The notes under the pieces were generated by a model that worked only from the letters and a program-made list of their open reading frames with translations, was not told the DNA's origin and did no database searches. A stretch of DNA of 64,000 bases from the NCBI RefSeq assembly GCF_036507355.1, contig NZ_AP027877.1; one strand, 5' to 3'. Below, one piece after another: positions 2,670 to 64,000 of this stretch. Within the stretch, counting starts at the first letter, position 1, and every line of letters begins with the position of its first letter. The position numbers and the translations under genes were made by a program. This stretch comes from Escherichia coli (GTDB lineage Bacteria; Pseudomonadota; Gammaproteobacteria; Enterobacterales; Enterobacteriaceae).

Positions 2670-2681
2670 GCCAGTTTTCAA

Positions 2682-4034
2682 TTAACGAAACACCACTTCC
2701 GCCCAGCGTGCTAGCCCGGCGGTGACGGAGCCAAAGTCATCGCCACCTGCAATCGGAATGCCCGGCAACTGTTCTGTCAGCGCTTTTTTAATCAGCGGAG
2801 AACGGGCGCTTCCGCCGGTCAGGTAGATAACGTCCGGTTTTTCCTGGGCGTTATCCAGGGCCAGTTGCACCTGTTCCAGAATCCGCGTCAGTGGCTGGCT
2901 GAGGGCGCTTTCCAGCCCTTGCTGGCTAATCAGCGTAGCCAGTTCATCGCTGATAAACGGCAGTGAGGCGCGGGTTTCCGCTACGCTTGAAAGCGCAATT
3001 TTGCTCTCTTCTGCGCTACGCACCAGGCGATAACTTAAACGCTGACGCCAGACTTTCTGTAACAGGGCCACTTTTTCCGGTTCGCGGGCATCGCGTACCA
3101 GATCGTTAAGCAGACGACCGTTGGCACTACTGTAGAAATCACTCTGCGCAGGAACGTCGTTGATGGCAACCGCATTCCACCACGGCAGAATCGGCAGGGC
3201 GATGCCTTTTTCGGTTTCGCCACCCATACCCAGTAACGGCATCAGGTTTTTAAACGCCAGCGCGATATCCAGATCGTTACCGCCAATACGGCAACCACTG
3301 TGACCCAGCAGGCTGGCTTCACGATCGAGACGCGAACGCCACTGCGGCCCCATCAGCAGCAATGAACAGTCAGTCGTACCACCGCCGATATCCACCACCA
3401 GCACCCGTTTTTCTTCCTGCAAGGAGGCTTCGTAATCCAGCCCAGCCGCGACCGGCTCGTACTGGAATACCACGTCCCTGAATCCGGCACGCTTCGCCGC
3501 GCGTTCCAGAATCCCTTGCGCCTGGGCGTTTGCTTCATCGCCGCCCAGCCCCTGGAAGTTGATCGGGCGACCAATCACCGCCTGAGTAATCGCTTCTGGC
3601 AGCTGCGCCTGCGCCTGCTGGCGAATGTGCAACATCATTGCGCAGACCAGATCCTCAAACAGCGCTACCTGCTGCGGTTTTAAGCCGCTGGCACCGAGGA
3701 ACGATTTTGGTGATTTCACAAACCACACTTCTTCTGGATCATCAATGTACTGTGCCAGTGAGGAAAGACCGAACTGCACGCTTTTCGCCGTAACATCGAT
3801 ATCTTCTTCGCGGTTATAACGAATCGCCCGACGCAACAGCGCCTGCGTTTCATCGTCGTCTGCCGGAACATCATGATGGCGGTACAGCCATTCGCTTACC
3901 GCTTCACGCGTTGGCGCGCAAAGCATTGAAGGCAGCAGCGTGCTGTCGTTTTCCATTTTTAGCAAGTGTGGTTTACCGTCACGCATGACCGCCACTGAAC
4001 AGTTTGCTGTACCGTAATCAAAACCAATAAACAC
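2682..4034 (-). CDS. yegD: Hsp70/actin-like ATPase family protein
   Basis: FIGFDYGTANCSVAV phosphate-1 motif and DIGGGTTD motif; start placed at in-frame GTG (4032-4034) preceded by GGGGA RBS to give about 450 aa; the ATG at 4097 gives a 471-aa alternative. Confidence 0.85.
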   Translation of the reverse strand: MFIGFDYGTANCSVAVMRDGKPHLLKMENDSTLLPSMLCAPTREAVSEWLYRHHDVPADDDETQALLRRAIRYNREEDIDVTAKSVQFGLSSLAQYIDDPEEVWFVKSPKSFLGASGLKPQQVALFEDLVCAMMLHIRQQAQAQLPEAITQAVIGRPINFQGLGGDEANAQAQGILERAAKRAGFRDVVFQYEPVAAGLDYEASLQEEKRVLVVDIGGGTTDCSLLLMGPQWRSRLDREASLLGHSGCRIGGNDLDIALAFKNLMPLLGMGGETEKGIALPILPWWNAVAINDVPAQSDFYSSANGRLLNDLVRDAREPEKVALLQKVWRQRLSYRLVRSAEESKIALSSVAETRASLPFISDELATLISQQGLESALSQPLTRILEQVQLALDNAQEKPDVIYLTGGSARSPLIKKALTEQLPGIPIAGGDDFGSVTAGLARWAEVVFR

Positions 4035-4167
4035 GAAATAATCCCCATGCCGGTGAAGAAGGGGCGTGACTTTAGCGAAATGTTGCCGTCGCGACAACCG
4101 GAATATGAAAGCAAAGCGCAGCGTCTGAATAACGTTTATGCTGAAAGCGGATGAATAAGGAGATGCG

Positions 4168-5016
4168 ATGTATACCCTGAACTGGCAGCCGCCGTATGAC
4201 TGGTCGTGGATGTTGGGATTTCTCGCCGCCCGTGCAGTGAGTGGTGTGGAAACGGTCGCTGACGATTATTATGCCCGTAGTCTGGCGGTGGGCGAATATC
4301 GCGGCGTGGTGACTGCTATTCCGGATATAGCCCGCCATACTCTGCACATAAATTTAAGTGCAGATTTAGAACCCGTTGCCGCTGAGTGTCTGGCGAAAAT
4401 GAGCCGCCTGCTTGATCTGCAATGTAACCCGCAGATTGTTAACGGTGCGTTGGGCAAGTTAGGCGCGGCGCGGCCCGGATTGCGTTTACCCGGCAGTGTT
4501 GATGCTTTTGAGCAGGGCGTGCGGGCGATTTTAGGCCAACTGGTGAGCGTGGCGATGGCGGCAAAATTGACTGCCAAAGTGGTACAGCTTTATGGCGAAC
4601 GGCTGGATGATTTTCCGGAGTATATCTGCTTCCCCACGCCTCAGCGGCTGGCAGCAGCAGACCCGCAGGCATTAAAAGCGTTAGGTATGCCGTTGAAACG
4701 GGCAGAGGCGCTGATTCATCTGGCAAATGCGGCGCTGGAGGGCACCTTACCAATGACAATACCGGGCGATGTGGAGCAGGCGATGAAAACGCTGCAAACT
4801 TTTCCGGGTATCGGGCGCTGGACGGCGAATTATTTTGCTTTGCGTGGCTGGCAGGCGAAAGATGTTTTCCTGCCGGATGATTATCTGATTAAACAGCGAT
4901 TTCCGGGAATGACACCGGCGCAAATCCGCCGTTATGCCGAGCGCTGGAAGCCCTGGCGTTCTTATGCGCTGTTGCATATCTGGTATACGGAAGGCTGGCA
5001 ACCAGACGAAGCATGA
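4168..5016 (+). CDS. alkA: 3-methyladenine DNA glycosylase II
   Basis: 282-aa ORF, N-terminus MYTLNWQPPYDWSWMLGFLAARAVSGVE recognised as AlkA. Confidence 0.9.
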   Translation: MYTLNWQPPYDWSWMLGFLAARAVSGVETVADDYYARSLAVGEYRGVVTAIPDIARHTLHINLSADLEPVAAECLAKMSRLLDLQCNPQIVNGALGKLGAARPGLRLPGSVDAFEQGVRAILGQLVSVAMAAKLTAKVVQLYGERLDDFPEYICFPTPQRLAAADPQALKALGMPLKRAEALIHLANAALEGTLPMTIPGDVEQAMKTLQTFPGIGRWTANYFALRGWQAKDVFLPDDYLIKQRFPGMTPAQIRRYAERWKPWRSYALLHIWYTEGWQPDEA

Positions 5017-5023
5017 CGTTGGT

Positions 5024-5109
5024 CGCCGGATGCGGTGCGAGCGCCTTATCCGGCCTGGGGAATGAGCGATTTGTAGGCATGATAAGACGCGTTAGCGTCG
5101 CATCAGACG
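5024..5109. repeat. REP/BIME element (two REP units) between convergent alkA and dgcE
   Basis: gccggatgcggtgcgagcgccttatccggcc and gtaggcatgataagacgcgttagcgtcgcatcagacg match the E. coli REP consensus. Confidence 0.8.
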
Positions 5110-5124
5110 ATGGGGAAGCACGCC

Positions 5125-8100
5125 TCAGTTAATCGCGAAATAACTACTATTCACCAGCAAATCCAGCGGTTGGGCATCGGCAATCACCTCACCATAAATC
5201 AGATCGACGCCGATGCCAGAAAGCGTATCCATCACTAAGGGTAAAACGACTGGCCCGGCGATGGTTTTCATCCCGAGTCGCTGAGCGTGCCCCTGAATAA
5301 TCGTAATCAGCATCTCATCCATCAAATTACCCTGCACGTTGGCGCATAACTCATCATCGAGTAGCAGGTAATCTGCCATATTCGCTTTCAGCGAGTTGAA
5401 GATTTGTAGATCGCGGCCCACCTGACTGAATATGATCCGACATCCCCCCAGCCGCAGTTTTTGCACGCTTTCTGCGTGATCTAAAATCGCTTCAGCCGGA
5501 ATAATCAGATGTAATAACCGTGGTGGTAGAGGGCTATTTTCCAGCTGCTCAAGCAGGTCATTCACCAGCATGGCGCTACTCAAACCGGCAACGGAAAGGG
5601 GGAGGGCGATGCTTATGCCTTTACTGGCAACCGCTTTTGCGGCCTGCTGGAAAAATTCGTGGAATACCCGGCGGTCAAGAGCATGGCTAAGCGCCGGATC
5701 GCTGAAGCTACGACGAAATGTTTGTTCATCAATAATCTCGCCTTCGCAACTCCAGAGCTTAAGTGAAATCAGCCACAAATTACGCGCTTCCGGGATCCGT
5801 GGCGAAGCGACACCGTGGGCGAGCATCATCAACTGATTCTCTTTAATCATCCGCCACTGTTCATCAAGCGACATCGCCGCCCGTTCGCTATGTGCGGCAG
5901 CTTGCTGCGGTTCGTAAACCGTCACCCGGCCCCGGCCACCATTTTTGGAGGCATAACAGGCGATATCAGCCTGCGACATCACTTCTGCCGCCTGATGATT
6001 GTTGTCATCGATCAAGGTAATCCCGGCGCTGGCACCTACCCGATGTACCCGGCCTTCCCATATAAAGTGATAGTCATTCACAGCACTGATAATACGTGTA
6101 GCGATAAAACGAGCGCTTTCAACATTGCAGTCTGGCAGCAGCAGACCAAATTCATCACCGCCGAGCCGCGCCAGCACGTCACTGGAGCGCAGCATACTCA
6201 GCATCAACGACGCCAGTTCGTGCAGCAAAGCGTCGCCCGCCGCATGCCCGGCGCTGTCATTCACCGCTTTAAAGCGATCAAGATCGATAAACACCAGTGC
6301 ATGTCGCTGATGCGTACTGTTTACCGTTTGCAGCAGGATACGCAGTTGTTTCTCAAAACTGGCGCGGTTGGCGAGATGCGTCAGTGCATCATGGGAGGCG
6401 CTGTAGCTCAGCTGGCGCAGCATTTTGCGTGATTCGGTGACGTCCTGAATCACCAGAACCGAGCCTATATTGCTGCCGTCCAGAGTACTTAACGGCGTAA
6501 TACTGTAATGCACGTCGTAGCTGCCGCCGCTCCGGCAGTGCAATACCACATCTTGTTCAATCGCGGAACGTGAGGTGTCGGCACTGTAAATGTTCTCCAT
6601 TAATGGTCCGTTGTCGCCAAAAGTAATATGCAACACCGTCAGGAGCGGAACACCTAATGCTTCTTCCTGCGTCCAGCCGCTCATCTTCTCCGCCACTGGA
6701 TTCATAAAGGTAATTTTCATCGCCATATCAATACAGACCACGGCTTCACCGATGGAATCAAGCGTAATGTGCAGGCGCTCTTTTTCCTGAAACAATGCCT
6801 CGTTAAGCTGTTTAACCTCGGTCATATCCATATTAATGCCGAGCAGACGTTCGACTTCGCCTTCTTTATTCAGTACCCGGTTGGCGAGGGCGCGGATATG
6901 GCGGATGCCATCTTTCACAGCAATGCGAAATTCCAGCTTAAAGGGCGAGCGTGATTGCAACGAATCACGAATCACTTTTTCGGCGTGTTGGCGATCTTCC
7001 GGCAATACACACTCGTACCACACCTGCCAGTTCGGTTTGATATGCGGAGGAATTTCATATAGCTCGAACATCCGCTTATCCCAGCTAAAAATATTCGGCT
7101 TCAGCTCCCACTCCCAGATGCCAATCCCGCCCGCTTCGTTAGCCAGCGTGATGCGCTCCATCAGTTGCTGATTGACCTGTTCGGTGCGTTTTAGCTCGTT
7201 AATGTCTTCAATCTGAGCGATAAAATAGAGCGGCGTGCCATCCGTGTGGCGCACCAGAGAGACGGCAAGCAACGCCCAGACAACATCGCCATTGCGGTTG
7301 TAGTAACGTTTTTCCATTGAATAAGTGTTTATTTCACCGCTTATCAGCTTTTCAACCTGTTGGAGATCTTTATTGAGATCCTCCGGCCAGGTCAGTTGCT
7401 GAAAGGTGAGTCCGCGCAGCTCTTCCTGACTGTAACCGAGAAACTGGCAGAGTGCTTTGTTGGATTGCAGCCATTGTCCCTCGGTGCCCACTAACGCCAT
7501 GCCGATAGCGGAATATTCCATCGCGTTTCGAAAGCGGGTTTCGCTTTCGGAAATGTGTTTGCGTTCCGCACGAAAGGCATACATCACCATGGTCATGATG
7601 TTGGCGGGCAGCAGGATCAGCAAAAACGGTAGCCACGGCATATGGCTCATCAGGTATGTACGCGGCGTAGCAAGCAGGGAGGGATCCGCGGCCATCATCA
7701 GCGACACCATCATCACCGTGGTAAGGAAGATCAAAAAGGCTTCCATTCGTGGCAGGCGCACGGCGCTCCACATCAACAGCACAATAATGAAAGTAAAAGG
7801 CCACGGCAGATACAGCATCGAAAGCCAGCTTAACGTCAGTGTGATGGCTAACGTGAGCAGCGACTCAAAAAGCAACCGTGGGTTGCGATGGCGCAGCAGA
7901 TAGTGTGGTTTAAATAACAATCCCAGCGGCACCAGTGCCAGAGCGCCGATGGATTCTGACAGTACCCATATCAAAAATGCCCTGAGAGGATCGTCTCCGG
8001 GCGTCAGCAGGACAACCAGAACACCCCCCAACAGAGGTGGAACAATGGCGCTGCCGAGTGCCAGACGCAGCCAGTCAGCCAGATTTTGCAAGGGGTTATA

Positions 8101-40322: not shown

Positions 40323-41327
40323 ATGAAAGTAATTGTAAATAATTTTTTTGATGGTATTTTGAAAAGAGGAATACCGATCTATACTTCTGAACTTGTGCAA
40401 AAGTTAAGAGACAATAATGTTCAGGTTATTTATGTTGCATGTCCAAAAGCATTCCATAAGCTGCCTTCATGGTTTCTGAATGTTCTTTTTATAATAGTAG
40501 AGCAGCTTTTAATACCAATTATGGGTATATTTTATAGAACTAAGTATAATATATATCCCTATAATAGTAGTTCCATCATTGACTTGTTATTAGGTAAGGC
40601 AATTGTTATAATTCATGACTTCATTAGTCTTAAGAAAAATAAACGAAATCTTGCTGCCATTTATGTGAAAGTCTGTATTTATTTTTCATCTTTTTTAGCA
40701 AAGAAAGTAATATTTATTTCTCAAAGCACTCAGCGAGTATCTAAGAGAATATCGCTATTTAAGTGTATAGAATCTATCCTGCTCCCAAATCCATTTTTCT
40801 CATTTGAGAAAATTGCTAATGTTACCGAAATAAAAGATCTTGGATATTTACTTCTAGTTTCAGGTTTAGGGGATAATAAGGATCTAGGCACAGCTCTGGA
40901 CTATTATTTTTCAATCCCAAGGGAAGAAAGAATACCATTAAAAATATTAGGTTGTGGGAATGGTATTAGCAAGGTTAACGACTTAATTGATGGGCGGGAT
41001 ACAGATAAAGAAATTGAAATTATTGGTTTTGTTTCTTTAGAGGAAGTCGTCAAACTATATTGTAATTCTAAAATTGTTTGGGCTCATTCGCTTGCCGAGG
41101 GGTATGGGAGGACTTTAGCTGAAGCAAAACTCACATGCAAAAATGTTATATGCACACGGATCTCTGCTTTCCGCGAACAAAAGGATTCGAATATTTTCTT
41201 TTATACTTACTATTCTGAGTATTATGAAGTCTATTCATACTTGGTAGATAATTCACCCAGTGTCGAAAGGAAAGCTCTGCATGAACATATTTTATTTGAA
41301 AATGAATTGAGAAAGATTTATGAGTAA
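40323..41327 (+). CDS. O-antigen glycosyltransferase (GT1/GT4-like)
   Basis: AT-rich ORF; C-terminal EGYGRTLAEA resembles the GT4 E-x7-E motif; start could also be 40290. Confidence 0.7.
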   Translation: MKVIVNNFFDGILKRGIPIYTSELVQKLRDNNVQVIYVACPKAFHKLPSWFLNVLFIIVEQLLIPIMGIFYRTKYNIYPYNSSSIIDLLLGKAIVIIHDFISLKKNKRNLAAIYVKVCIYFSSFLAKKVIFISQSTQRVSKRISLFKCIESILLPNPFFSFEKIANVTEIKDLGYLLLVSGLGDNKDLGTALDYYFSIPREERIPLKILGCGNGISKVNDLIDGRDTDKEIEIIGFVSLEEVVKLYCNSKIVWAHSLAEGYGRTLAEAKLTCKNVICTRISAFREQKDSNIFFYTYYSEYYEVYSYLVDNSPSVERKALHEHILFENELRKIYE

Positions 41328-42522
41328 TATTGATATAAATAAGAAACAGATCTTAGTTTTGACTCCACGGTTCCCGTTTCCTGTCATTGGTGGGGATCGA
41401 TTACGTATCTATAAGATCTGTAAAGAACTGTCTAAGCATTATGATCTTACGTTGCTGAGTCTGTGTGATAAACGCGAAGAGCTCAACTATGAATATGATC
41501 GTGAAGTTTTTAGTAGTGTTCACAGAGTATATCTTTCAAAGAAAAAATCTATTTTAAATGTCATATTCTCTTTGTTTTCAAATACTCCCCTACAGATTGG
41601 GTATTATAAATCTAAAGAATTTGAAGATAAACTTAAGCAGTTATTACCTGAACATTCTGCAACTCTTTCACATTTGATAAGGGTTGGTGATTATGTGAAA
41701 GAGAATAAAGATATAAATTTTTTAGAGATGACCGATGCCATTTCACTTAATTATAAACGAGTAAAGGAAAAAGCATCTTTATTGAGTTTAAAAACATTTG
41801 TATATTCTTTTGAACAAAAAAGACTCGAACGATATGAGCGAACTATAAATAACAAGTTCAGCTTGACTACTTTAGTATCACAGGTTGACTCCGATTATTT
41901 ATATCCAGACCGTCCGAATAATGTATTAGTCTGTGGAAATGGTGTTGATGCCGTTAGCTTACCTTTTTCAGAACGAAAAATAGCTAAAGATAAAAAGATA
42001 ACCCTTGTATTTATAGGTAATTTATATTCTTTGCAAAATATGGATGGTGTGAGATGGTTCACCAAGGAAGTTTTACCATTTCTTAACAAGCATGGTAATT
42101 TTGAATTTAAGGTCATCGGACGTATTACAGATAAAGATAAGAGTTGGTTAGAAAGCCAGCCTGGCGTTGTTGTCACAGGTGAAGTTGATAGCATAACTTA
42201 TGCAGCAGCTGATGGGCATATTGGTGTATGTCCTATTAGATTAGGGGCAGGTATCCAAAATAAGGTACTTGAATATATGGCGTTGGGATTACCTTGTATC
42301 TCTTCTACTGTAGGCTTTGAAGGCTTGGGAGCAGAGGAGGGTAAGGAGATTTATGTTGCCAATACAAAAGAAGAATATTTACGTGTATTAAATTATTTTA
42401 TAACAAATCTGGATAAATATACCGAAACAGCATTAGTTGCGAAAAAGTTCATCGGTGAGAATTTTTCATGGGAAGCTAAATTGAGCCCATATATCCAGAA
42501 AATTAAGGAGTCTGTTAAATAA
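41320..42522 (+). CDS. O-antigen glycosyltransferase (GT4 family)
   Basis: 400 aa; GT4-like C-terminal domain ([22 protein letters not shown]). Confidence 0.75.
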
Positions 42523-42523
42523 A

Positions 42524-43939
42524 ATGATTATCCCAATTATTATGGCCGGTGGTTCTGGTACTCGCTTATGGCCTCTTTCGCGTTCGTTATACCCGAAACA
42601 ATTTTTATCATTGATTAATGAAAATAGTTTGCTCCAGGAAACGTTGAAGAGACTTGATGGATTAAATTGTTTGCCTCCTGTCATTGTTAGCAATAATGAG
42701 CATAGATTTATTGTTGCTGAACAATTGCGCCAGTTCGGTGTGGATGACTTCCAGATTATTCTAGAACCTGTAGGTAGAAATACTGCGCCCGCCGTTGCGC
42801 TGGCTGCTCTAAAGTCTCTAGAACTCCATGGCGATCATCATATGCTGGTTCTTGCTGCTGACCATGCTATTCAGGATATTGAAGCCTTCCATGCAGCTGT
42901 TTTAGCTGCAGAACAAGAGTCCGTTGACAATAAGTTAGTGACTTTTGGCATCGTCCCGACCAAACCTGAAACTGGGTATGGCTATATTAAAAAGGGCGAA
43001 CAAGTTAAAAACTCTGTATTTAAAGTAAATTCTTTCGTCGAAAAACCTGATTTAGAAACGGCTAAAAATTATCTCGAACAAAAATGCTATTTGTGGAATA
43101 GTGGTATGTTCATGTTCAAGGCGAGCGTATATTTAGATGAATTGAAAAAATTTCGCCCTGATATTTTAGCAGCGTGTAAAGAGTCGCTTTCCAGTGCTAG
43201 TACTGATCTAGATTTTATCAGATTAAATTCTGATGTCTTTGCAGAATGTCCCGATGAGTCAATTGATTATGCGGTAATGGAAAAAACTCAGGATTGTGTA
43301 GTTATTCCACTTGATGCTGACTGGAGTGACATCGGTTCATGGACATCACTTTGGGAAATATCAGAGAAAGATGAACATGAAAACGTATCGCATGGCGATG
43401 TAATTAACTATAACAGCAGGAACAACTACATTTACTCTGAAGGTTCACTGATCAGCACTGTAGGAGTTAATAACCTTATTATAGTTCAAACTAAAGATGC
43501 GCTCCTGGTAGCACAGCAAGACAACGTACAAGACATAAAGAAGATTGTCGAAATTCTTAAAAAGCAAAAACGTAGCGAACATGTATCCCATCGCGAAGTC
43601 TATCGTCCTTGGGGACGTTATGATTCTGTAGAACGTGGCGACCGTTATCAGGTAAAACGTATTACCGTTAAGCCTGGTGAATGTCTCTCAACACAAATGC
43701 ATCATCATCGAGCTGAGCATTGGGTGGTTGTCGCTGGTACTGCAAAGGTGACTTGCGGCGAACGCACTTTTTTCGTCACTGAAAATGAGTCAACTTTCAT
43801 ACCAATTGGCACAGTTCATACCTTGGAAAATCCAGGAAAGATACCATTAGAAGTAATTGAGATTCAGTCGGGTGTATATCTAGGTGATGATGATATTGTG
43901 CGCCTAAGTGATAAATATGGTCGTGTTGAGGATAAATAA
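42524..43939 (+). CDS. manC: Mannose-1-phosphate guanylyltransferase (O-antigen copy)
   Basis: 471 aa; [16 protein letters not shown]; collinear with cpsB but AT-rich. Confidence 0.9.
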
Positions 43940-43943
43940 TTAT

Positions 43944-45365
43944 ATGAATATTACCAATGATGTAATTAAAAATAGCGGAATTGCATTTGGTACAAGTGGT
44001 GCTCGTGGATTAGTGAAAGATTTTACACCCAACGTGTGTGCTGCATTCACTTATGCTTTTATCGATGTAATGATGAAGGATTTTTCTTTTAAAGAGGTTG
44101 CGCTCGCAATAGATAATCGGCCAAGCAGCTATGCTATGGCACAAGCTTGCGCAGCAGCATTGTTGGAATGTAGTATTAAACCTATTTACTACGGTGTAAT
44201 TCCAACTCCAGCTTTGGCAAATCAAGCGATTGCCGATGGGATTCCTGCAATAATGGTTACTGGAAGTCATATTCCATTTGATAGAAATGGTTTGAAATTC
44301 TATCGTCCAGACGGGGAAATTTCAAAAGAAAATGAGAACAGCATTATACATGCTGAAAAAGAGTATCCTGATGTAACTGTATTGCCAGAATTACAATGTT
44401 CAAAGCGTGCCGCTGATACTTATATCGAGAGAAACACTTCAATTTTTTCAAATATATTTAAAGGTAAACGTATCGGGATTTATGAACATTCAAGTGCGGG
44501 ACGGGATCTTTATTCAGAAATATTCAGTAAACTTGGTGCTGAAGTTGTAAGTATTGGTAGAAGTGATAAGTTTGTGCCTATTGATACTGAAGCAGTATCA
44601 AAAGAAGATGAAGAAAAAGCTTTACACTGGTCATCTGAGTATGACCTCGATATGATTTTTTCTACCGATGGTGATGGCGATCGTCCTTTGGTTGCTGACG
44701 AAAATGGCGTTTGGTTACGGGGTGATATATTAGGACTATTTTGCTCAAAGGCAATGAATATTGAAGCGGTAGCTGTACCTGTAAGTTGTAATACGGTTAT
44801 TCAGACTTGCGGGTGGTTTAATCATGTAACGCTGACTAAAATTGGTTCACCATACGTCATTTCAGCGTTTGATTCTCTGAATAATAGTTTTGATAGGGTT
44901 GCAGGGTTTGAGGCTAACGGTGGGTATCTTTTAGGTAGCGATGTAAATTATAACAGCGGTATGATTAAAGCGCTTCCAACAAGAGATGCTGTTTTGCCTG
45001 CTTTAATGGTACTGGCACTGGCTATAAAAAATAATGTGACTATTTCAAAACTCTTGGCGGAGTTGCCACCACGATTTACCTACTCAAATAGAGTTCAAAA
45101 TTTTGCAACAAGCAAAAGCAAAAGCATTATCGCGTCAGCTCAAGAAAATCCTCAAGAATTTATCGAAAGAATAGGCTTTGTCGATCTTCATGTACAATCG
45201 GTGGATACAATTGACGGGTTAAGATTGACACTAAGTGATGGTTCAATAATCCATTTGCGACCGTCAGGCAACGCACCTGAATTGCGATGCTATGCAGAAG
45301 CAGATAACATAATAAAAGCTGAAAAATTAGTGTTAGAAGTTTTGCATAAAGTTACTCTTTTGTAA
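43944..45365 (+). CDS. manB: Phosphomannomutase (O-antigen copy)
   Basis: Start at [22 protein letters not shown] (473 aa); AT-rich. Confidence 0.85.
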
Positions 45366-45547
45366 AAAATATAAACTTTTTTCTACTCTTGAGCGGTTTG
45401 TCATTTAACCGCTCAGTAATAGATTGTTTATAAATTGTTTATATTTAGCATTGGTGTTTTTATTTGCGTTCATCCCGAATAAGAGATTGTAAAATTAACT
45501 GTTTCTTATTTTTCAAATGAGTTACTTCACTAGTAAAGCTAATTACT

Positions 45548-46879
45548 ATGCATAAGCAATATTATTTATTATTGTGCAATAAAATACAGTTTAAACATCT
45601 GGCTATATATTTTTCTGTATTTCTTTCACTATCCTCATGTTTCTTGTGGGGAGGGGCGGATACATTTGTATCGCAAGTGTATATTGATATTTTAGCCACT
45701 ATATCTACAGCGCTATTAGTTATTTTGATGTTCTATTATTATATTAATAGAGTTCGCTATTTATCACTAACCTTACTTTTTGCATTCGTTTTTTCTTTGA
45801 TTATTGGTTTGCCATCGATTTATCTTTACTATTTTAAAAACGCAAATCATGGGTTTGAAATAATTTGTATCTGGGGGATGTTGATCAATTCCATCCTTTA
45901 CTTGCAAACAACAGAGACTGTCATAAAAGAAGAAAAAAGATATTTAACTAGTTTATTTTATATTTTGTTTTCTATTGTTGCACTGTGTCAATTATACAAA
46001 ATATTAATTTATCTTATGTTTATATTGAATTCAGGAGAAGGGCATTTAGCAATTTATACTGAAAGCGAAGAATTGCTATCCCAAGTTCCATTTTTTATTC
46101 GTGCTATTAGTGGTTTTGCAGTTGTAATGTCATTGTCCACTTTTTATTTTAAAACACCGACCTACATTAAAGTTATTGCATTTGTTTTACTTGCATCTGA
46201 TTTAGCTATTGGAATACGTAATAAGTTTTTCTTTTCAGTGATTTGTATTTTTATACTATATATGTACTCTAATGAGTATAGAGTAAGAAATTTATTTAAG
46301 CAGCTCTCAAAACCAATATTTCTCATCGCCGGTTTTTTATGCTTCTCGATGGTATCGTATTTCCGTGAAGGGTACCAAATCGATTTTATGATTTATATTG
46401 GCATTGTTTTAGATTCGCTATCCTCTACTCTTGGGGGGATGCAGAATTTGTTTGATATGCAATCATCAGGATGGGATCAACTTCATCCCGCTGTGGTATT
46501 CACACAAGTATTACCGCTAAGCGGTCTTGGTTTTCTTGATGATCAACAAATCGCAAAAGATTTTTCAATAATTGTTTTAGGTGATGTATCCTCTGGTATT
46601 GCGTTGTCATCTTCAGGATTGTTAGAGTCATCGTTGCTGAGTCTAAACTTGGGAGTGATTATTTATTTACTGTATTTATCAGGGGTGATGCTATTTATTA
46701 AATGGGGACTAAATAATCAACGGATAATAATAAACTTTGTTGCCATCTCCATGATATCTGGATTTTTTTATGCTGTTCGTGGTGAACTGATTTTGCCATT
46801 GGCTTTTCTTCTAAAATCATTGCCGATTGTTCTTATATCTCCATTACTTGTTAAAAATAAAATTTATCATGGTCAGTAA
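45548..46879 (+). CDS. wzy: O-antigen polymerase
   Basis: 443-aa extremely hydrophobic, very AT-rich ORF with multiple predicted TM segments; start uncertain. Confidence 0.7.
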   Translation: MHKQYYLLLCNKIQFKHLAIYFSVFLSLSSCFLWGGADTFVSQVYIDILATISTALLVILMFYYYINRVRYLSLTLLFAFVFSLIIGLPSIYLYYFKNANHGFEIICIWGMLINSILYLQTTETVIKEEKRYLTSLFYILFSIVALCQLYKILIYLMFILNSGEGHLAIYTESEELLSQVPFFIRAISGFAVVMSLSTFYFKTPTYIKVIAFVLLASDLAIGIRNKFFFSVICIFILYMYSNEYRVRNLFKQLSKPIFLIAGFLCFSMVSYFREGYQIDFMIYIGIVLDSLSSTLGGMQNLFDMQSSGWDQLHPAVVFTQVLPLSGLGFLDDQQIAKDFSIIVLGDVSSGIALSSSGLLESSLLSLNLGVIIYLLYLSGVMLFIKWGLNNQRIIINFVAISMISGFFYAVRGELILPLAFLLKSLPIVLISPLLVKNKIYHGQ

Positions 46880-46920
46880 GTGGTTTATTTTTCGACCAGG
46901 ATCTCACCAGTAGGCATGAC

Positions 46921-48156
46921 ATGATCAAAGAAATTTTCTCCGATGGCATTTTTTCGCTATTTAATAAAATATGTTACTTCGGTTTTAAAACACTTGCAAT
47001 AATTCTGATTACTCGTTCCTTAGGAGAAGATGTAGGCGGAGAGTTCATTTTTTTAGTTGGTTTTCTCGAAGTCCTTCGGGTGGTTACTGATTTTGGTGTG
47101 GATCTGTTTGTTATAAAAAAATATAATGATTCTACAGATAAAATAAAACTATTAAATGTAACGTTTGCACAAAAAATTCTTTCTGGAGTAATTGTTTTAC
47201 TACTGTTTTGTTTGTATTCTTTTGTTCAGGGTTATCAATATAATGTCTATATTCCTATTGTGTTAGCCTTACCTGTTGCTTTATTTTTTAATTTCTCAAA
47301 TAGCTATTTTCAATCTCTAAATTCCAATAAATCTCTCACGTTTCCGATCGCAATTGCATCTATTGCAACGTGTACGATCTTCGCTATTCAGTATTTTTTC
47401 AACGTTAAATTTAACGCATGGGATTACCTGTGTGTTGAACTATTATTCGTATCGCTGGTTACACTAAAACTATTCGTTAGTGTCAAGTTTAGGTTTATTA
47501 GAACGTCAGCTTTTGATGTGCTAATGTCAATTCTTTCTTTATATAAATATACATTAAGTATAGGTCTTACAGCTGTTGTTGTAATTATTTATAGCCGTAT
47601 AGATAATTTTTATCTCAAGACATTTGCCCCAGGGGATCTTGCAGCATATGGCCAGATATTTAGGATGGTTGATCCACTGGTTATGGTTTCTTCTGTATTT
47701 TCTACAGTTGCCTATGCAAGATTTTGCCGAATTAACTTACAAGAAAAAAATACTTTTACTAAGGTGTTTCAGTTCCTGTTATGTATTGTGGCATATGGCG
47801 TGCTGAGTTCATTAGTTTATTTCTTTATAATAAAATACCTGGGTCATTTTGTATTGATTTCTAATGTTAATAATGATTTCTTGATAATGATGTTCTTGAT
47901 TGTTGCATGTGTGAAATGTATCAATGGTGGTACAACTGCAATAATTCAGTCACAGGGGTTTTATAAAGTGGGTTTGTATGTTTCGTATGTTTGCATTTTG
48001 ACATCGATACCAACTATGTATTTCTTAATAATGAAGTACGGTGTTAAAGGTGCTGCTATGACGATTCTGCTTGTAGAGTGTATTAGTTTCATATTACTTC
48101 TCTGCAGCTTTTTTATGATAAAAAAGATGCGTCCTAAAAAAACATTCGAAATGTAA
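46921..48156 (+). CDS. wzx: O-antigen flippase
   Basis: 411-aa polytopic membrane protein with Wzx-like N-terminus (RSLGEDVGGEF...DFGVD). Confidence 0.75.
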   Translation: MIKEIFSDGIFSLFNKICYFGFKTLAIILITRSLGEDVGGEFIFLVGFLEVLRVVTDFGVDLFVIKKYNDSTDKIKLLNVTFAQKILSGVIVLLLFCLYSFVQGYQYNVYIPIVLALPVALFFNFSNSYFQSLNSNKSLTFPIAIASIATCTIFAIQYFFNVKFNAWDYLCVELLFVSLVTLKLFVSVKFRFIRTSAFDVLMSILSLYKYTLSIGLTAVVVIIYSRIDNFYLKTFAPGDLAAYGQIFRMVDPLVMVSSVFSTVAYARFCRINLQEKNTFTKVFQFLLCIVAYGVLSSLVYFFIIKYLGHFVLISNVNNDFLIMMFLIVACVKCINGGTTAIIQSQGFYKVGLYVSYVCILTSIPTMYFLIMKYGVKGAAMTILLVECISFILLLCSFFMIKKMRPKKTFEM

Positions 48157-52350: not shown

Positions 52351-52955
52351 TCACTGATGCCGTTTACGCAGGTTTTCAATTACCGTCGTTAAATCCAGAT
52401 CCTGATCCTGCAACAGCACCAGCAGGTGATACATCAAATCAGACGCCTCGTTGGTCAGCTCAAAGCGGTCATGTACAGTCGCGGCCAGTGCGGTTTCCAC
52501 GCCTTCTTCGCCCACTTTCTGCGCAATGCGTTTGGTGCCGCTGGCATACAGTTTGGCAGTGTAAGAGGTTTCCGGGTCGGCAGATTTGCGTTCGGCGAGC
52601 AGTTGTTCCAGTTGATACAGGAACAGCCACTGGTGAGCGGTGTCGCCGAAGCAGCTGCTGGTGCCTTTGTGGCAGGTCGGGCCGATGGGATTCGCCAGCA
52701 CCAGTAAAGTGTCGTTGTCGCAGTCCGGCGCAATATTTACTACGTTGAGGAAATTGCCCGACGTTTCGCCTTTGGTCCACAGCCGTTGTTTAGTGCGCGA
52801 GAAGAAGGTGACTTTGCCGCTTTCGATGGTTTTGTCTAAAGCTTCCGGGTTCATATAGCCCAGCATTAGCACTTCGCCGGATACCGCGTGTTGCACAATC
52901 ACCGGCATAAGTCCGTCGATTTTTTCCCAGTCCAGTTCGCGACGTTGTTGTTCTG

Positions 52956-56108: not shown

Positions 56109-58479
<2,371 letters not shown>

Positions 58480-58484
58480 GGCGA

Positions 58485-59384
58485 TCACTCCATCATCTTC
58501 TCAATCGGCAGGACCAGAATCGAACTGGCACCCAGCGCTTTCAGTTTTTCCATCGTTTCCCAGAACAGGGTTTCGCTACTGACCATGTGCATCGCTACGC
58601 GCTGTTGATCACCCGCCAGCGGTAGAATAGTTGGGCGTTCGGCACCTGGCAGCAGGGCGATGACTTCATCCAGACGTTCGGTCGGTGCGTGCATCATGAT
58701 GTATTTTGATTCGCGCGCCTGGATCACACCCTGAATACGGGTCAGCAGTTTGTCGATCAGTTGCTGTTTGGATTCTTCCATTTCGCCATCGCGTTGTATC
58801 AGGCAGGCTTTCGAGCGATAGATAACTTCGACTTCGCGCAGGCCGTTTGCTTCCAGCGTGGCACCGGTGGAAACCAGATCGCAAATCGCATCCGCCAGTC
58901 CGGCACGCGGGGCGACTTCAACAGAACCGTTCAGTAAGCAGGATTTAAAAGAGATGCCTTTCTGGTCGAGATAACGCTTGAGCAGGTGAGGATAAGAGGT
59001 GGCGATACGTTTACCGTTTAAGGAGAGCGGGCCATCCCAGGCTTCATCAACCGGCGTTGCCAGTGAAAGTCGGCAGCCGCCGAAATCCAGACGACGCAGG
59101 GTAAAGTAGCGCGGATCTTCACCTTGGGCGCGGCGATTAAGCAACTCTTCTTCCAGCACGTTTTCGCCGATAATCCCAAGGTCTACCACGCCATCCATTA
59201 CCAGACCGGGAATGTCGTCGTCACGCACGCGCAGAATATCAATCGGCATGTTTTCTGCCATCGCGATCAGGCGCTGGGTGTGAAGATTGATTTTAATGCC
59301 ACAGCGCGCCAGCAATTCGCGTGAGTCATCACTTAAACGGCCGGATTTCTGCATAGCTATGCGTAAACGAGTGTTGTCTGTCAT
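58485..59384 (-). CDS. hisG: ATP phosphoribosyltransferase
   Basis: Start at [17 protein letters not shown] (299 aa). Confidence 0.95.
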
Positions 59385-59430
59385 TTTCTTATTCCTCTTT
59401 AAACCTGTCTGAACCGTTATCAACCGCGCA

Positions 59431-59466
59431 ATAAAAAAGCCCCCGGAAGGTGATCTTCCGGGGGCT
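59431..59466 (-). terminator. his attenuator terminator hairpin
   Basis: Minus-strand agcccccggaag...cttccgggggct followed by a U-run. Confidence 0.9.
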
Positions 59467-59529
59467 TTCTCATGCGTTCATGAACCACTGGAAGATCTGA
59501 ATGTCTTCCAGCACACATCGCCTGAAAGA

Positions 59530-59580
59530 CTAGTCAGGATGATGGTGATGATGGTGGTGTTTAAATTGAACGCGTGTCAT
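59530..59580 (-). CDS. hisL: his operon leader peptide
   Basis: Minus strand encodes MTRVQFKHHHHHHHPD with seven consecutive His codons. Confidence 0.95.
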   Translation of the reverse strand: MTRVQFKHHHHHHHPD

Positions 59581-59584
59581 AAAA

Positions 59585-59650
59585 GTCTCTGTGAATGTTT
59601 ATTCAACTGATGTCTTTTAACCTAAACCACTTTCACGTTAGAAAGCAAGG
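59585..59650 (-). promoter_or_regulatory. his operon promoter region (approximate)
   Basis: Minus strand ...cttgctttctaacgtgaaagtggtttaggttaaaagacatcagttgaataaacattcacagag immediately upstream of hisL; exact -35/-10 not delimited. Confidence 0.6.
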
Positions 59651-59799
59651 GCTTTTTTATATATTTTATGGCGATGGATTTGTTTAATGAATGAGCGGGG
59701 AAAGGAGGGGGCTAAGAGTGACTAGGTTAAAAAAGTAATCGTGAAAATATGTCATTAAACCCTCAAGAACATTGTGTTCTGTAACTAAAGTGGGCTTTG

Positions 59800-59905
59800 T
59801 TCCTGCCGGATGCGGCGTGAATGCCTTATCAGGTCTACAAATGTTGCCTAAATTCAATATATTGATGTTTTTGTAGGACTGATAAGCGGAGCGCATCAGG
59901 CAATG
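59800..59905. repeat. REP/BIME-like pair between hisL and yeeZ
   Basis: cctgccggatgcggcgtgaatgccttatcaggtctac ... gtaggactgataagcggagcgcatcaggc. Confidence 0.7.
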
Positions 59906-60005
59906 GTATATTTGCTAACAGTTTCGATTTCATTCATAGAATGAATTGTCAGTTTTGATACGCTAGCGTAGCCTTATAGATCTAAGGTGTATCAGGAGAT
60001 AACGG

Positions 60006-60830
60006 ATGAAAAAGGTCGCAATTGTCGGGTTAGGGTGGTTAGGCATGCCGCTGGCGATGTCACTTTCAGCGCGAGGCTGGCAAGTCACCGGGAGTAAAAC
60101 CACACAAGATGGTGTCGAAGCGGCCCGAATGAGTGGCATTGATAGCTATCTGCTTCGCATGGAGCCTGAGTTAGTTTGCGATTCTGACGATCTGGATGCC
60201 CTGATGGATGCCGATGCGCTGGTCATTACGCTTCCGGCACGTCGTAGCGGCCCCGGCGATGAGTTCTATTTACAAGCGGTACAAGAGTTAGTGGATAGCG
60301 CGCTGGCCCATCGTATTCCCCGAATTATTTTTACCAGCTCAACATCTGTCTATGGCGACGCGCAAGGCACGGTGAAAGAAACCACCTCGCGTAATCCGGT
60401 AACCAACAGTGGACGAGTATTAGAAGAACTCGAAGACTGGCTGCACAATTTACCCGGTACTTCGGTCGATATTCTGCGTCTTGCGGGCCTGGTCGGACCG
60501 GGACGTCATCCCGGACGCTTCTTTGCCGGAAAAACCGCGCCTGATGGTGAACATGGTGTTAATTTAGTCCATTTAGAAGATGTTATTGGCGCTATCACTC
60601 TGTTGTTACAGGCACCTAAAGGCGGACACATCTATAATATATGTGCGCCATCTCACCCTGCGCGTAATGTTTTCTATCCGCAGATGGCCCGTTTACTGGG
60701 GCTGGAACCTCCGCAGTTCAGAAATAGTCTGGACAGCGGCAAAGGTAAGATTATTGATGGCAGTCGGATTTGTAATGAACTGGGATTTGAATACCAGTAT
60801 CCCGATCCGCTGGTAATGCCGCTGGAGTAA
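60006..60830 (+). CDS. yeeZ: NAD(P)-binding epimerase/dehydratase-family protein
   Basis: 274 aa; MKKVAIVGLGWLGMPLA Rossmann N-terminus. Confidence 0.9.
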   Translation: MKKVAIVGLGWLGMPLAMSLSARGWQVTGSKTTQDGVEAARMSGIDSYLLRMEPELVCDSDDLDALMDADALVITLPARRSGPGDEFYLQAVQELVDSALAHRIPRIIFTSSTSVYGDAQGTVKETTSRNPVTNSGRVLEELEDWLHNLPGTSVDILRLAGLVGPGRHPGRFFAGKTAPDGEHGVNLVHLEDVIGAITLLLQAPKGGHIYNICAPSHPARNVFYPQMARLLGLEPPQFRNSLDSGKGKIIDGSRICNELGFEYQYPDPLVMPLE

Positions 60831-60875
60831 ACGATCACGCCAGCAGGACGCCGCATGCACTGCAAGGGGGCGTGT

Positions 60876-61805
60876 ATGAAACCACTGCTGGATGTGTTGA
60901 TGATCCTCGATGCCTTAGAAAAAGAAGGCAGTTTTGCGGCGGCGTCGGCCAAACTCTACAAGACGCCGTCCGCTCTGAGTTACACCGTTCACAAGCTGGA
61001 AAGCGACCTTAATATTCAATTACTTGATCGTAGCGGTCACCGCGCTAAATTCACCCGTACCGGAAAAATGTTATTAGAGAAGGGGCGGGAAGTTCTGCAT
61101 ACCGTGCGAGAACTGGAAAAGCAGGCGATCAAACTGCATGAAGGCTGGGAAAACGAGCTGGTGATTGGCGTGGACGACACGTTTCCTTTTTCTCTGCTTG
61201 CGCCACTGATTGAAGCTTTTTATCAACATCATAGCGTGACGCGCCTGAAGTTTATCAATGGCGTACTCGGTGGTTCCTGGGATGCCCTGACTCAGGGGCG
61301 AGCGGATATTATTGTTGGCGCGATGCATGAGCCACCATCTTCCAGTGAGTTTGGTTTCTCGCGGTTGGGCGATCTGGAACAAGTCTTTGCGGTCGCGCCT
61401 CATCATCCGTTAGCCCAGGAAGAAGAACCGTTAAACCGTCGTATCATTAAACGATATCGGGCGATTGTGGTGGGGGACACTGCGCAGGCCGGCGCTTCTA
61501 CGGCCTCACAACTTCTCGACGAACAAGAAGCCATTACCGTTTTCGATTTTAAAACCAAGCTGGAGCTGCAAATTAGCGGCCTCGGCTGCGGCTATTTACC
61601 CCGTTATCTGGCGCAACGTTTTCTCGATAGTGGCGCGTTAATCGAGAAGAAAGTGGTCGCCCAAACTCTCTTTGAACCCGTCTGGATTGGCTGGAATGAA
61701 CAGACCGCAGGGCTTGCCAGCGGCTGGTGGCGGGATGAAATTTTAGCAAATAGTGCGATCGCCGGTGTTTATGCAAAATCTGATGACGGAAAATCAGCCA
61801 TTTAA
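60876..61805 (+). CDS. yeeY: LysR-family transcriptional regulator
   Basis: Start at MKPLLDVLMILDALEKEGSFAAAS (309 aa); N-terminal HTH. Confidence 0.9.
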   Translation: MKPLLDVLMILDALEKEGSFAAASAKLYKTPSALSYTVHKLESDLNIQLLDRSGHRAKFTRTGKMLLEKGREVLHTVRELEKQAIKLHEGWENELVIGVDDTFPFSLLAPLIEAFYQHHSVTRLKFINGVLGGSWDALTQGRADIIVGAMHEPPSSSEFGFSRLGDLEQVFAVAPHHPLAQEEEPLNRRIIKRYRAIVVGDTAQAGASTASQLLDEQEAITVFDFKTKLELQISGLGCGYLPRYLAQRFLDSGALIEKKVVAQTLFEPVWIGWNEQTAGLASGWWRDEILANSAIAGVYAKSDDGKSAI

Positions 61806-61891
61806 AGAAAAATTATTATGACAAGCCTCTCATTCTCTTGTCATTCCCCCCCCATTTAGGCACAATGCGCCGCTGTCAAAAAATGACTAAA

Positions 61892-61924
61892 AACCGACGT
61901 TTCATCAGCGTCGGTTATTTTTTG
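61892..61924 (+). terminator. Probable rho-independent terminator
   Basis: aaccgacg...cgtcggtt stem followed by T-run. Confidence 0.55.
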
Positions 61925-62071
61925 CTTCAAACCAATCATTCATACCAAGAGGCCGGGCTTCGTACCGGATAGATATTTACTAAAAATCGACAGTTGTTGT
62001 CGCTGAGGAATCCAAAAAAATGGGGCAATTTTTTGCTTACGCGACGGTTATCACCGTAAAGGAGAATGACC

Positions 62072-63430
62072 ATGTCGCATAACGTTACTCCAAACACCTC
62101 TCGCGTGGAATTGCGTAAAACGCTTACGTTAGTTCCGGTTGTAATGATGGGTCTTGCCTATATGCAGCCGATGACGCTGTTTGATACTTTTGGTATCGTT
62201 TCAGGCCTCACGGATGGTCATGTGCCGACAGCCTATGCGTTCGCATTGATTGCGATCCTGTTTACGGCTCTGAGCTACGGGAAGCTGGTTCGCCGCTATC
62301 CTTCTGCTGGCTCTGCATACACTTACGCCCAGAAATCCATTAGCCCGACTGTCGGCTTTATGGTGGGTTGGTCTTCTCTGCTCGACTATCTGTTCGCGCC
62401 GATGATCAACATTCTGCTGGCGAAAATCTATTTTGAAGCTCTGGTGCCTTCCATCCCATCGTGGATGTTTGTGGTGGCGCTGGTGGCCTTTATGACCGCC
62501 TTTAACCTGCGTAGTCTGAAATCCGTAGCGAACTTCAACACTGTAATCGTCGTGTTGCAGGTAGTGCTGATCGCGGTGATTCTGGGCATGGTTGTTTATG
62601 GCGTATTTGAAGGTGAAGGCGCTGGTACGCTGGCGAGCACTCGTCCATTCTGGTCTGGCGATGCGCATGTTATCCCGATGATTACCGGGGCGACAATCCT
62701 GTGCTTCTCCTTTACCGGCTTTGACGGCATCAGCAATCTGTCGGAAGAAACCAAAGATGCAGAGCGCGTGATCCCGCGTGCGATTTTCCTGACCGCGCTG
62801 ATCGGCGGCATGATCTTCATCTTTGCAACTTACTTCCTGCAGCTGTACTTCCCGGATATCTCTCGCTTTAAAGATCCGGATGCGTCACAGCCTGAAATCA
62901 TGCTGTACGTTGCGGGTAAAGCGTTCCAGGTTGGCGCGCTGATCTTCTCCACCATTACCGTACTGGCGTCCGGTATGGCGGCGCATGCAGGCGTAGCGCG
63001 TCTGATGTACGTAATGGGTCGTGACGGCGTATTCCCGAAAAGCTTCTTCGGTTATGTACACCCGAAATGGCGTACTCCGGCGATGAACATCATCCTGGTT
63101 GGCGCGATTGCCCTGCTGGCAATCAACTTCGACCTGGTAATGGCTACGGCGCTGATCAACTTTGGTGCGTTGGTGGCGTTCACCTTCGTTAACCTGTCGG
63201 TCATCTCGCAGTTCTGGATCCGTGAGAAGCGTAATAAGACGCTGAAAGATCACTTCCAGTATCTGTTCCTGCCGATGTGTGGTGCGCTGACCGTTGGTGC
63301 GCTGTGGGTTAACCTGGAAGAAAGCTCAATGGTTCTGGGTCTGATCTGGGCTGCTATCGGTCTGATTTACCTGGCTTGCGTCACCAAGAGCTTCCGTAAC
63401 CCGGTTCCGCAGTACGAAGACGTAGCATAA
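62072..63430 (+). CDS. plaP: Putrescine importer (APC family)
   Basis: Start at [16 protein letters not shown] (452 aa); polytopic. Confidence 0.9.
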
Positions 63431-63448
63431 TCATCTTTTCTAATAATC

Positions 63449-63487
63449 AACCGGAGTCGAATGAATATTTGGCTCCGGTTTTTTTAT
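63449..63487 (+). terminator. Rho-independent terminator after plaP
   Basis: aaccggag...ctccggtt stem followed by T-run. Confidence 0.7.
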
Positions 63488-63608
63488 TCTTTTTTATCGA
63501 AATCCTCATTAAGAACCATTTGTTCTAATTTAGAGAATTTGGTTATTGGTCTGCATTCCACCAGTCATGAATAATTTCCTCATTAACATTCATCTGGTTA
63601 ATTAATTT

Positions 63609-64000
63609 ATGTTTTCAATGATATTAAGCGGGCTAATTTGTGGTGCTCTGCTGGGATTTGTCATGCAGCGTGGGCGTTTTTGCCTGACTGGTGGTTTTCG
63701 CGATATGTATATCGCGAAAAATAATCGCATGTTTTACGCCTTGCTGATTGCAATTTCGGTACAAAGTGTGGGGGTTTTTGCGTTAATTCAGGCGGGCCTA
63801 CTGACTTACGAAGCCGGGGCGTTCCCGTGGCTTGGTACTGTTATAGGTGGGTATATCTTCGGGCTGGGAATTGTTCTGGCGGGTGGATGTGCCACCGGGA
63901 CCTGGTATCGCGCGGGTGAGGGATTGATCGGCAGTTGGATCGCGCTTTTCACTTATATGGTGATGAGTGCGGTGATGCGTTCTCCACATGCCAGTAGTTT
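63609..64000 (+). CDS. yeeE: Thiosulfate transporter YeeE/TsuA family, 3' end truncated by window edge
   Basis: MFSMILSGLICGALLGFVMQRGRFCLTGGFRD... open to the end of the window; not in the ORF track because it has no stop. Confidence 0.85.
   Translation, partial: MFSMILSGLICGALLGFVMQRGRFCLTGGFRDMYIAKNNRMFYALLIAISVQSVGVFALIQAGLLTYEAGAFPWLGTVIGGYIFGLGIVLAGGCATGTWYRAGEGLIGSWIALFTYMVMSAVMRSPHASS

Follow-up and report, generated by a model that had tools for sequence, protein, structure and literature searches.

The minus strand of the window (i.e., the whole 64,000-nt stretch of DNA that was analyzed) carries the leader of a histidine biosynthesis operon. Its first element is hisL, a short ORF that reads ATG ACA CGC GTT CAA TTT AAA CAC CAC CAT CAT CAC CAT CAT CCT GAC TAG and that is annotated as WP_001364200.1 at the homologous site of both E. 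coli G4/9 and E. coli K-12. The run of seven CAY codons within this ORF occurs a single time in the 64-kb window, and it was never produced in 100 dinucleotide-preserving shuffles. Beyond hisL come a GC-rich hairpin and a U-run, and then, 46 nt from the end of the terminator, the ATG of hisG, whose product is the same protein as WP_000131782.1, going by how the nearly identical locus in G4/9 is annotated. The genes hisG, D, C, B, H, A, F and IE lie downstream of the leader on the same strand, from 59384 to about 52351. The original prediction, made from the letters of the DNA, had described a leader peptide with seven histidines on the minus strand at 59530-59580, followed by a hairpin and U-run at 59431-59466 ahead of hisG. 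The translation is exactly the peptide that it gave, and the His run and the placement before hisG are as described; the G+C core and the U-run of the hairpin also stand, but two to four outer A-U/G-U pairs were missed. The features of the locus are collected in Table 1.

Table 1. Features of the his leader and its surroundings in the window (segment letters A-F as in the text).
Feature	Position	Strand	Details and basis
his promoter (putative)	59648-59619	minus	-35 TTGCTT 59648-59643, 18-nt spacer, -10 TAGGTT 59624-59619; sequence reading
Transcription start, +1 (putative)	59611	minus	position implied by the nucleotide numbers in Yao et al. 2023 (PMC10989985), as opposed to a 5' end mapped in the strain
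hisL leader ORF	59580-59530	minus	translation MTRVQFKHHHHHHHPD* (16 codons, ATG start, UAG stop)
rDnaA boxes 1/2 (proposed)	59566-59556	minus	nt 46-56
Seven consecutive His codons	59559-59539	minus	CAC CAC CAU CAU CAC CAU CAU; sensor for charged tRNA-His
Hairpin A:B	59547-59512	minus	59547-59534 with 59525-59512, 12 bp; Rfam structure line, MFE fold
his pause hairpin	59538-59521	minus	CCUGA...UCAGG, inner part of A:B
Antiterminator helix B:C	59530-59522 with 59511-59503	minus	GUCUUUCAG with CUGGAAGAC; 9 bp, -11.8 kcal/mol
Hairpin C:D	59511-59504 with 59495-59488	minus	CUGGAAGA / UCUUCCAG; 8 bp, -11.0 kcal/mol; Rfam
Antiterminator helix D:E	59497-59490 with 59459-59452	minus	GAUCUUCC with GGAAGAUC; 8 + 4 bp; inner pairs G:C, GGU:GCC
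rDnaA box 3 (proposed)	59486-59478	minus	GGUGCAUGA in other strains, GGUUCAUGA in the window
Private substitution	59483	minus	G>U in RNA (A on plus strand); D-E spacer, between hairpins C:D and E:F
Terminator (attenuator) E:F	59470-59430	minus	59470-59455 with 59449-59434, loop AUCAC, U6AUU to 59430; Rfam, MFE fold
hisG (ATP phosphoribosyltransferase)	59384-58485	minus	first structural gene under attenuator control; Shine-Dalgarno AGAGGA 59398-59393

The his promoter was assigned by reading the sequence, and its hexamers are accordingly given as putative. An A/T-rich tract (59672-59653) lies upstream of them, and the promoter region of the window aligns without difference to those of G4/9 and K-12. 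The promoter was not listed in a consensus promoter scan, because TTGCTT fits only 3/6; we see in this the narrowness of the scan's criteria and not a missing promoter. A transcription start at 59611 is suggested by the published numbering, since it is only with this origin that boxes 1/2 (46-56), 3 (126-134) and 4 (187-195) and the residues U49, G127, U128 and G129 all fit. Three small mechanical ORFs that overlap the leader (59420-59518 on the minus strand, 59539-59610 and 59595-59687 on the plus strand) were set aside, there being no evidence that they are genes.

The identity of the locus is supported from several directions. The Rfam His_leader model (RF00514) matched the minus strand at 59554-59431 with 131.2 bits, where the gathering score is 49 (E = 1.8e-22), and the match covers model positions 1-126 of 126 and is not truncated. 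Of 5426 complete E. coli genomes, 5423 matched a 341-nt leader query, and the features lying under these matches are, in essentially all of the genomes, "hisL: his operon leader peptide", "His leader region" and hisG. In fact, every testable defining feature of an enterobacterial his attenuator is present, including the covariance model score, the His-codon ORF, the terminator, the antiterminator and the position of hisG. It is nearly certain, then, that the locus is the leader and attenuator of the E. coli hisLGDCBHAFI operon, a ribosome-mediated transcription attenuator. The original prediction called it a textbook case and a known feature, and rightly so: all of its elements occur in the right order and place, and in RefSeq the homologous site is annotated accordingly in practically all complete E. 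coli genomes. As known biology, its confirmation adds no new knowledge. Nevertheless, the leader provides a useful anchor: with it, both the identity and the strand of the his operon are settled, and hence those of the neighboring gnd, O-antigen and colanic-acid region.

A hairpin followed by a U-run is, of course, the generic form of a terminator, and this one might conceivably be an ordinary intrinsic terminator of the upstream gene that happens to lie near a His-rich mini-ORF. Nothing besides the form of the hairpin speaks for such a reading. The upstream neighbor, yeeZ (60006-60830), is encoded on the opposite strand and points away from the leader; chance would not be expected to yield the His run; the Rfam match is full-length; and the ORF, antiterminator and terminator are kept together across genera. 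The probability of a coincidental terminator is negligible, and we regard the idea as refuted in favor of a his attenuator. An Rfam scan of 57000-64000 yielded no T-box or riboswitch family at gathering score. The sole other Rfam match in that interval was to STnc240 (RF02074) at 61851-61925 on the plus strand (68.2 bits, cut-off 55), an enterobacterial sRNA with a terminator-like hairpin that is situated between yeeY and yoeI/plaP.

The terminator itself has core arms of AAAGCCCCCGGAAG (59468-59455) and CUUCCGGGGGCUUU (59449-59436), which form a 14-bp stem evaluated at -27.6 kcal/mol and which are extended to 16 bp (59470-59434) in the Rfam model. The RNA from 59470 to 59430 reads AGAAAGCCCCCGGAAG-AUCAC-CUUCCGGGGGCUUUUUU-AUU. 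A consensus terminator scan listed no terminator at the his leader, and we judge this to be a limit of the scan's rules and not an absence of the terminator, as all the other evidence points to a strong one; apparently, the hairpin was missed because the extension of its stem through A-U/G-U pairs consumes the T-run that is sought.

RNA polymerase presumably pauses at 59510, a position placed according to the his pause literature. The hisL pause is hairpin-dependent, with a consensus context of G-10 Y-1 G+1 (PMC9291695), and the window fits this consensus with U at -1 (59510), G at +1 (59509) and G at -10 (59519). Both the pause hairpin and its surrounding context have the same sequence as in K-12.

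Folding of the leader predicts the pairings expected of six segments, for which the A-F nomenclature of the Salmonella and E. coli literature is used here (PMC4046918). The 186-nt leader folds at -67.3 kcal/mol as compared to -39.6 +/- 3.6 in shuffles (z = -7.7), and its unmasked MFE fold consists of A:B, C:D and E:F. When nt 1-80 were masked, as by a ribosome stalled at the His codons, and the RNA reached only to E, the MFE structure was B:C plus D:E at -31.7 kcal/mol. When nt 1-96 were masked, as by a ribosome at the stop codon, C:D was predicted once D had been made, and the MFE structure of the full leader was C:D plus E:F. Both of the alternative structures that the original prediction had proposed to look for by folding appear under these ribosome masks. 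With the ribosome at the stop codon and the RNA extending up to E, the MFE structure was D:E and not C:D; since D:E is the optimum at this intermediate length despite the ribosome's position, the switch must be kinetic and set by the order of synthesis. The classical model of his attenuation also assumes a kinetic decision. These alternative folds are, of course, thermodynamic predictions.

One further pairing is predicted in the untranslated fold, where CACCAC of the first two His codons (59559-59554) pairs with GUGGUG (59488-59483) downstream of C:D. This long-range helix encloses A:B and C:D as a three-way junction and is absent from the Rfam model. The same stem is referred to as "rDnaA boxes 2 and 3" by Yao et al. 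(PMC10989985).

Conservation of the leader was followed by scanning a single genome of each species, the pattern being a run of seven CAY codons with CCNGA after it. The scan returned at least 120 loci, and among the matches listed, a short leader ORF was present in 57. Two of the 57 that are not his leaders, three that are cut by locus ends and five duplicates were set aside, which left 47 distinct leaders. The resulting alignment comprises 48 gamma-proteobacterial leaders: the window, 43 other Enterobacteriaceae and four that are more distant. Across these 48 leaders, standard pairs occupy 98.3% of cells for the terminated structure (36 pairs) and 98.6% for the antiterminated structure (21 pairs), as against 40-58% overall, and 45-58% for the antiterminated structure, in a control where the partners were slid by 1-3 columns. 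For the individual helices, the proportion of paired cells is 97.9% in A:B, 100% in B:C, 98.4% in C:D and 97.6% in D:E. The antiterminator of B:C plus D:E is seen both in prediction and in conservation, with the proviso that conservation of pairing is partly forced by the His codons.

Covariation within the same alignment bears on some helices more than on others. Compensatory changes across taxa were found at three E:F pairs (G-C to A-U and C-G to U-A) and, weakly, at two outer D:E pairs, and no double-sided changes were seen in A:B, C:D or B:C in the 48 leaders. Covariation support is weak for A:B, C:D, B:C and D:E because these segments hardly vary, and as far as the alignment goes, it neither proves nor disproves A:B, C:D and B:C. 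The commonest variation in segment C is an A>G change, seen in 13 sequences; it turns one pair of C:D into G-U and one of B:C into U-G, wobble pairs that both conformations tolerate.

Several variants of the leader ORF were encountered along the way. Trabulsiella odontotermitis (L050) has ten consecutive His codons (MSVQFKHHHHHHHHHHPD), and the leader peptide of E. coli E69 (L054) begins with MVRVQFK... as opposed to MTRVQFK.... At several loci of Enterobacter and Lelliottia (L034, L038, L060, L066 and L102), an in-frame upstream ATG would give MNKHSSRIYMTRVQFK..., a mechanical reading from a putative start. A candidate his leader outside the Proteobacteria (L057, MHKHHHHHHHPD...) was rejected: its DNA is a tract of CCA repeats, and none of the ORFs of at least 100 aa listed nearby is a his gene.

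The regulatory behavior of the window's leader is taken from work with E. coli and Salmonella. In those bacteria, transcription terminates in histidine excess, reads through when the ribosome stalls at His4-His6 and is super-attenuated without translation, with read-through of the terminator increasing when charged tRNA-His is limiting (PMC4046918). By analogy, transcription of the window's operon would begin ~30 nt upstream of hisL, and RNA polymerase would make A:B and pause directly after it, allowing a ribosome to load on hisL. With charged tRNA-His in plentiful supply, the ribosome would pass the seven His codons to the UAG and cover B, so that C:D and E:F could form, and E:F with its U-run would stop transcription 46 nt before hisG. 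Under low tRNA-His charging, the ribosome would stall at the His codons and cover only A, leaving B:C and D:E to form; E would then not be free for F, and the polymerase would read into hisG. If translation were absent altogether, A:B, C:D and E:F would form and transcription would terminate.

The trp, phe, leu, thr and ilv attenuators follow the same logic, with a codon-rich ORF, a pause hairpin, mutually exclusive structures and a read-out of ribosome position, but they respond to other amino acids and have other sequences. The terminated form of the his leader has three hairpins built from six segments, in contrast to the four segments of trp, and no repressor is known to act at the his promoter. 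Histidine biosynthesis genes of Gram-positive bacteria are likewise controlled by histidine or tRNA-His status, through the His T-box or HisR (PMC9413887). These systems differ from the window's leader in employing direct tRNA sensing or a DNA-binding protein, with no leader peptide.

Comparison with the published his leader of K-12 and Salmonella enterica, the examples from which the textbook model was derived, bears out the assignment, as the check suggested by the original prediction: the leader peptide, promoter, His run and pause hairpin are identical, and all six pairing segments, the terminator loop, the U-run and the position upstream of hisG are the same. Over the 341 nt compared, three differences from K-12 were found in the aligned part and one from G4/9. 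Two of the differences from K-12 are common to G4/9, namely a T>C at 59673, ~60 nt upstream of the transcription start, and a C>G at 59388, 4 nt before the hisG ATG, in the gap that follows the Shine-Dalgarno sequence. The nearest genome is that of E. coli G4/9 (NZ_CP060073.1), where the same coordinates hold hisL, the His leader region and hisGDCBHAFI. With 8 substitutions in the last 20 kb by BLAST, G4/9 is a close relative and not the same sequence, and the his locus shows the window to be from an E. coli closely related to it.

A single private substitution, which the original prediction did not notice, sets the window's leader apart. The RNA at 59483 reads CAGUGGU[U]CAUGAACG in the window, with G in place of the bracketed U in G4/9 and K-12. 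The context is GGU[G>U]CAUGA, and the change leaves the His codons and all stems of the terminated form untouched; the His-codon run, a disruption of which the original prediction would have found notable, has its seven codons intact, with the substitution lying outside of it. None of 5408 complete E. coli genomes contains a sequence identical to a 61-nt query centered on 59483; 5406 of them matched at 95-99% identity and 0 at 99% or above, and the base is G in at least 5406 of the 5408. The corresponding column of the alignment has G in 43/43 of the other Enterobacteriaceae leaders, and U or C only in the four more distant leaders (L051, L111, L031 and L108, Aeromonas and Tolumonas among them). 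A 33-mer with the U was absent from 241 million metagenome records, as against 87 stretches in the metagenome collection for the 33-mer with the G. G is also the base in K-12, E. coli E69 and E. albertii, which makes the U of the window the derived state.

An allele without a second example among the genomes and metagenome records searched, at a position where even the nearest relative, G4/9, has G, might simply reflect a mistake in sequencing or assembly, or a mutation that arose in the laboratory, with the natural strain having G. However, the change is a substitution and not a homopolymer indel, the window carries other derived SNPs (e.g., at 52919), and where it differs from G4/9 by indels, the window looks the cleaner of the two. 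Considering both sides, an artifact or laboratory origin is unlikely, albeit worth bearing in mind.

If the U is genuine, it could conceivably shift the set-point of an otherwise intact attenuator, leading to somewhat more read-through and a higher basal expression of the his genes. Folding energies lean in this direction, with the antiterminator state at -31.7 kcal/mol with U versus -28.8 with G (2.9 more stable with U) and the full untranslated leader at -67.3 kcal/mol with U versus -70.4 with G (3.1 less stable with U). In these folds, the new U is predicted to pair with the A at 59470, lengthening the CAUG/CAUG helix inside D:E, and the G>U change removes one terminal C:G pair of the CACCAC:GUGGUG helix. 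With no ribosome and RNA up to E, the predicted MFE structure also switches, from the three-way junction with the G allele to A:B plus D:E with the U allele. The prevalence of G in E. coli and other Enterobacteriaceae, the failure to find U in metagenomes and the derived state of U fit with a functional position as well. Weighing against a set-point shift, the more distant leaders have U or C in this column, 59483 falls in a segment that is unpaired in the Rfam model, and 3 kcal/mol is within the error of such structure models. Moreover, the window differs from its nearest relative by ~1 SNP per 2.5 kb, so that the chance of a SNP falling within the 190 nt of the leader is not especially low (~7%), and another substitution at the very same position, G129A, caused no significant change of his-lacZ in wild-type cells (PMC10989985). 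A shifted set-point is thus rather improbable, and any effect of G>U on read-through is probably small. It is slightly less probable still that the change (G129U) is a natural regulatory variant raising basal read-through by way of D:E stabilization or breakage of the CACCAC:GUGGUG helix. Were it both real and functional, it would supply a natural point variant for testing the D-E spacer, and the disputed DnaA-box effect, on the attenuation set-point.

The DnaA-box effect comes into play since the base at 59483 is the one that Yao et al. 2023 count as G129, a residue of "rDnaA box 3" (nt 126-134) (PMC10989985). In that proposal, DnaA binds rDnaA boxes 1/2 and 3, holds back the ribosome, blocks D:E and reinforces attenuation (PMC10989985). 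The leader RNA was enriched with DnaA-Flag by RIP, with an enrichment ~3-fold lower for G129A and for a 128-134 deletion, and his expression was 4-fold higher in dnaA(A345S) (PMC10989985). All four boxes can be located in the window's leader and, as the paper states, each has two consensus mismatches, except that the window's base change takes box 3 from two mismatches to three. When at most two mismatches to TTWTNCACA are allowed (at +46-56, +126-134 and +187-195), boxes 1/2 and 4 are intact, and box 3 falls out through its third mismatch. Should the leader RNA also be a DnaA-responsive switch, the strain might be partly blind to DnaA. On the other hand, DnaA-RNA binding was not found in vitro, the authors themselves call the evidence for direct binding not conclusive, and G129A left expression unchanged in wild-type cells (PMC10989985); the His codons and RNA pairing account just as well for the conservation of the box bases. 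The rDnaA boxes are putative elements, and a DnaA-responsive switch on top of the attenuator, in a strain partly blind to DnaA, is very unlikely.

The spacer upstream of the leader also differs from that of K-12, in which the yefM-yoeB toxin-antitoxin genes lie between yeeZ and hisL. In the window, yefM-yoeB is absent, and a 205-nt segment (59724-59928, within 59581-60005) with no K-12 match takes its place. This arrangement, at 80% coverage or more, is shared by ~22% of complete E. coli genomes (1196 of 5426), including O157:H7 and G4/9, and it has no annotated feature. A mechanical 70-aa ORF (59684-59896, minus strand) lies inside the segment. The possibility of REP-like palindromes in the spacer was considered and found to be unsupported, as an inverted-repeat search of 59600-60020 with a seed of 9 came back empty.

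Farther from the leader, the O-antigen region of G4/9 is set apart from that of the window by many indels, and G4/9 alone has an IS3 copy. In the low-GC O-antigen cluster at 40557-47284, G4/9 has ~55 single-base deletions, with the IS3 at ~43540, and RefSeq lists frameshifted wzy, wzx and phosphomannomutase pseudogenes in the G4/9 cluster. The window probably carries intact O-antigen genes of the O17/O44/O73/O77/O106 family, and the frameshifts of G4/9 may be assembly errors. At the other end, the window extends 1183 nt further left than the part aligned with G4/9. The adjoining interval at 1214-6221, homologous to yegI, yegD, alkA and dgcE of G4/9, has a SNP density of ~2%, with some 105 substitutions and a small cluster of indels near 5048-5122. 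Beyond 6.3 kb, the density is ~1 SNP per 2.5 kb, and judging from the sequences, the drop near 6.3 kb looks like a recombination boundary.
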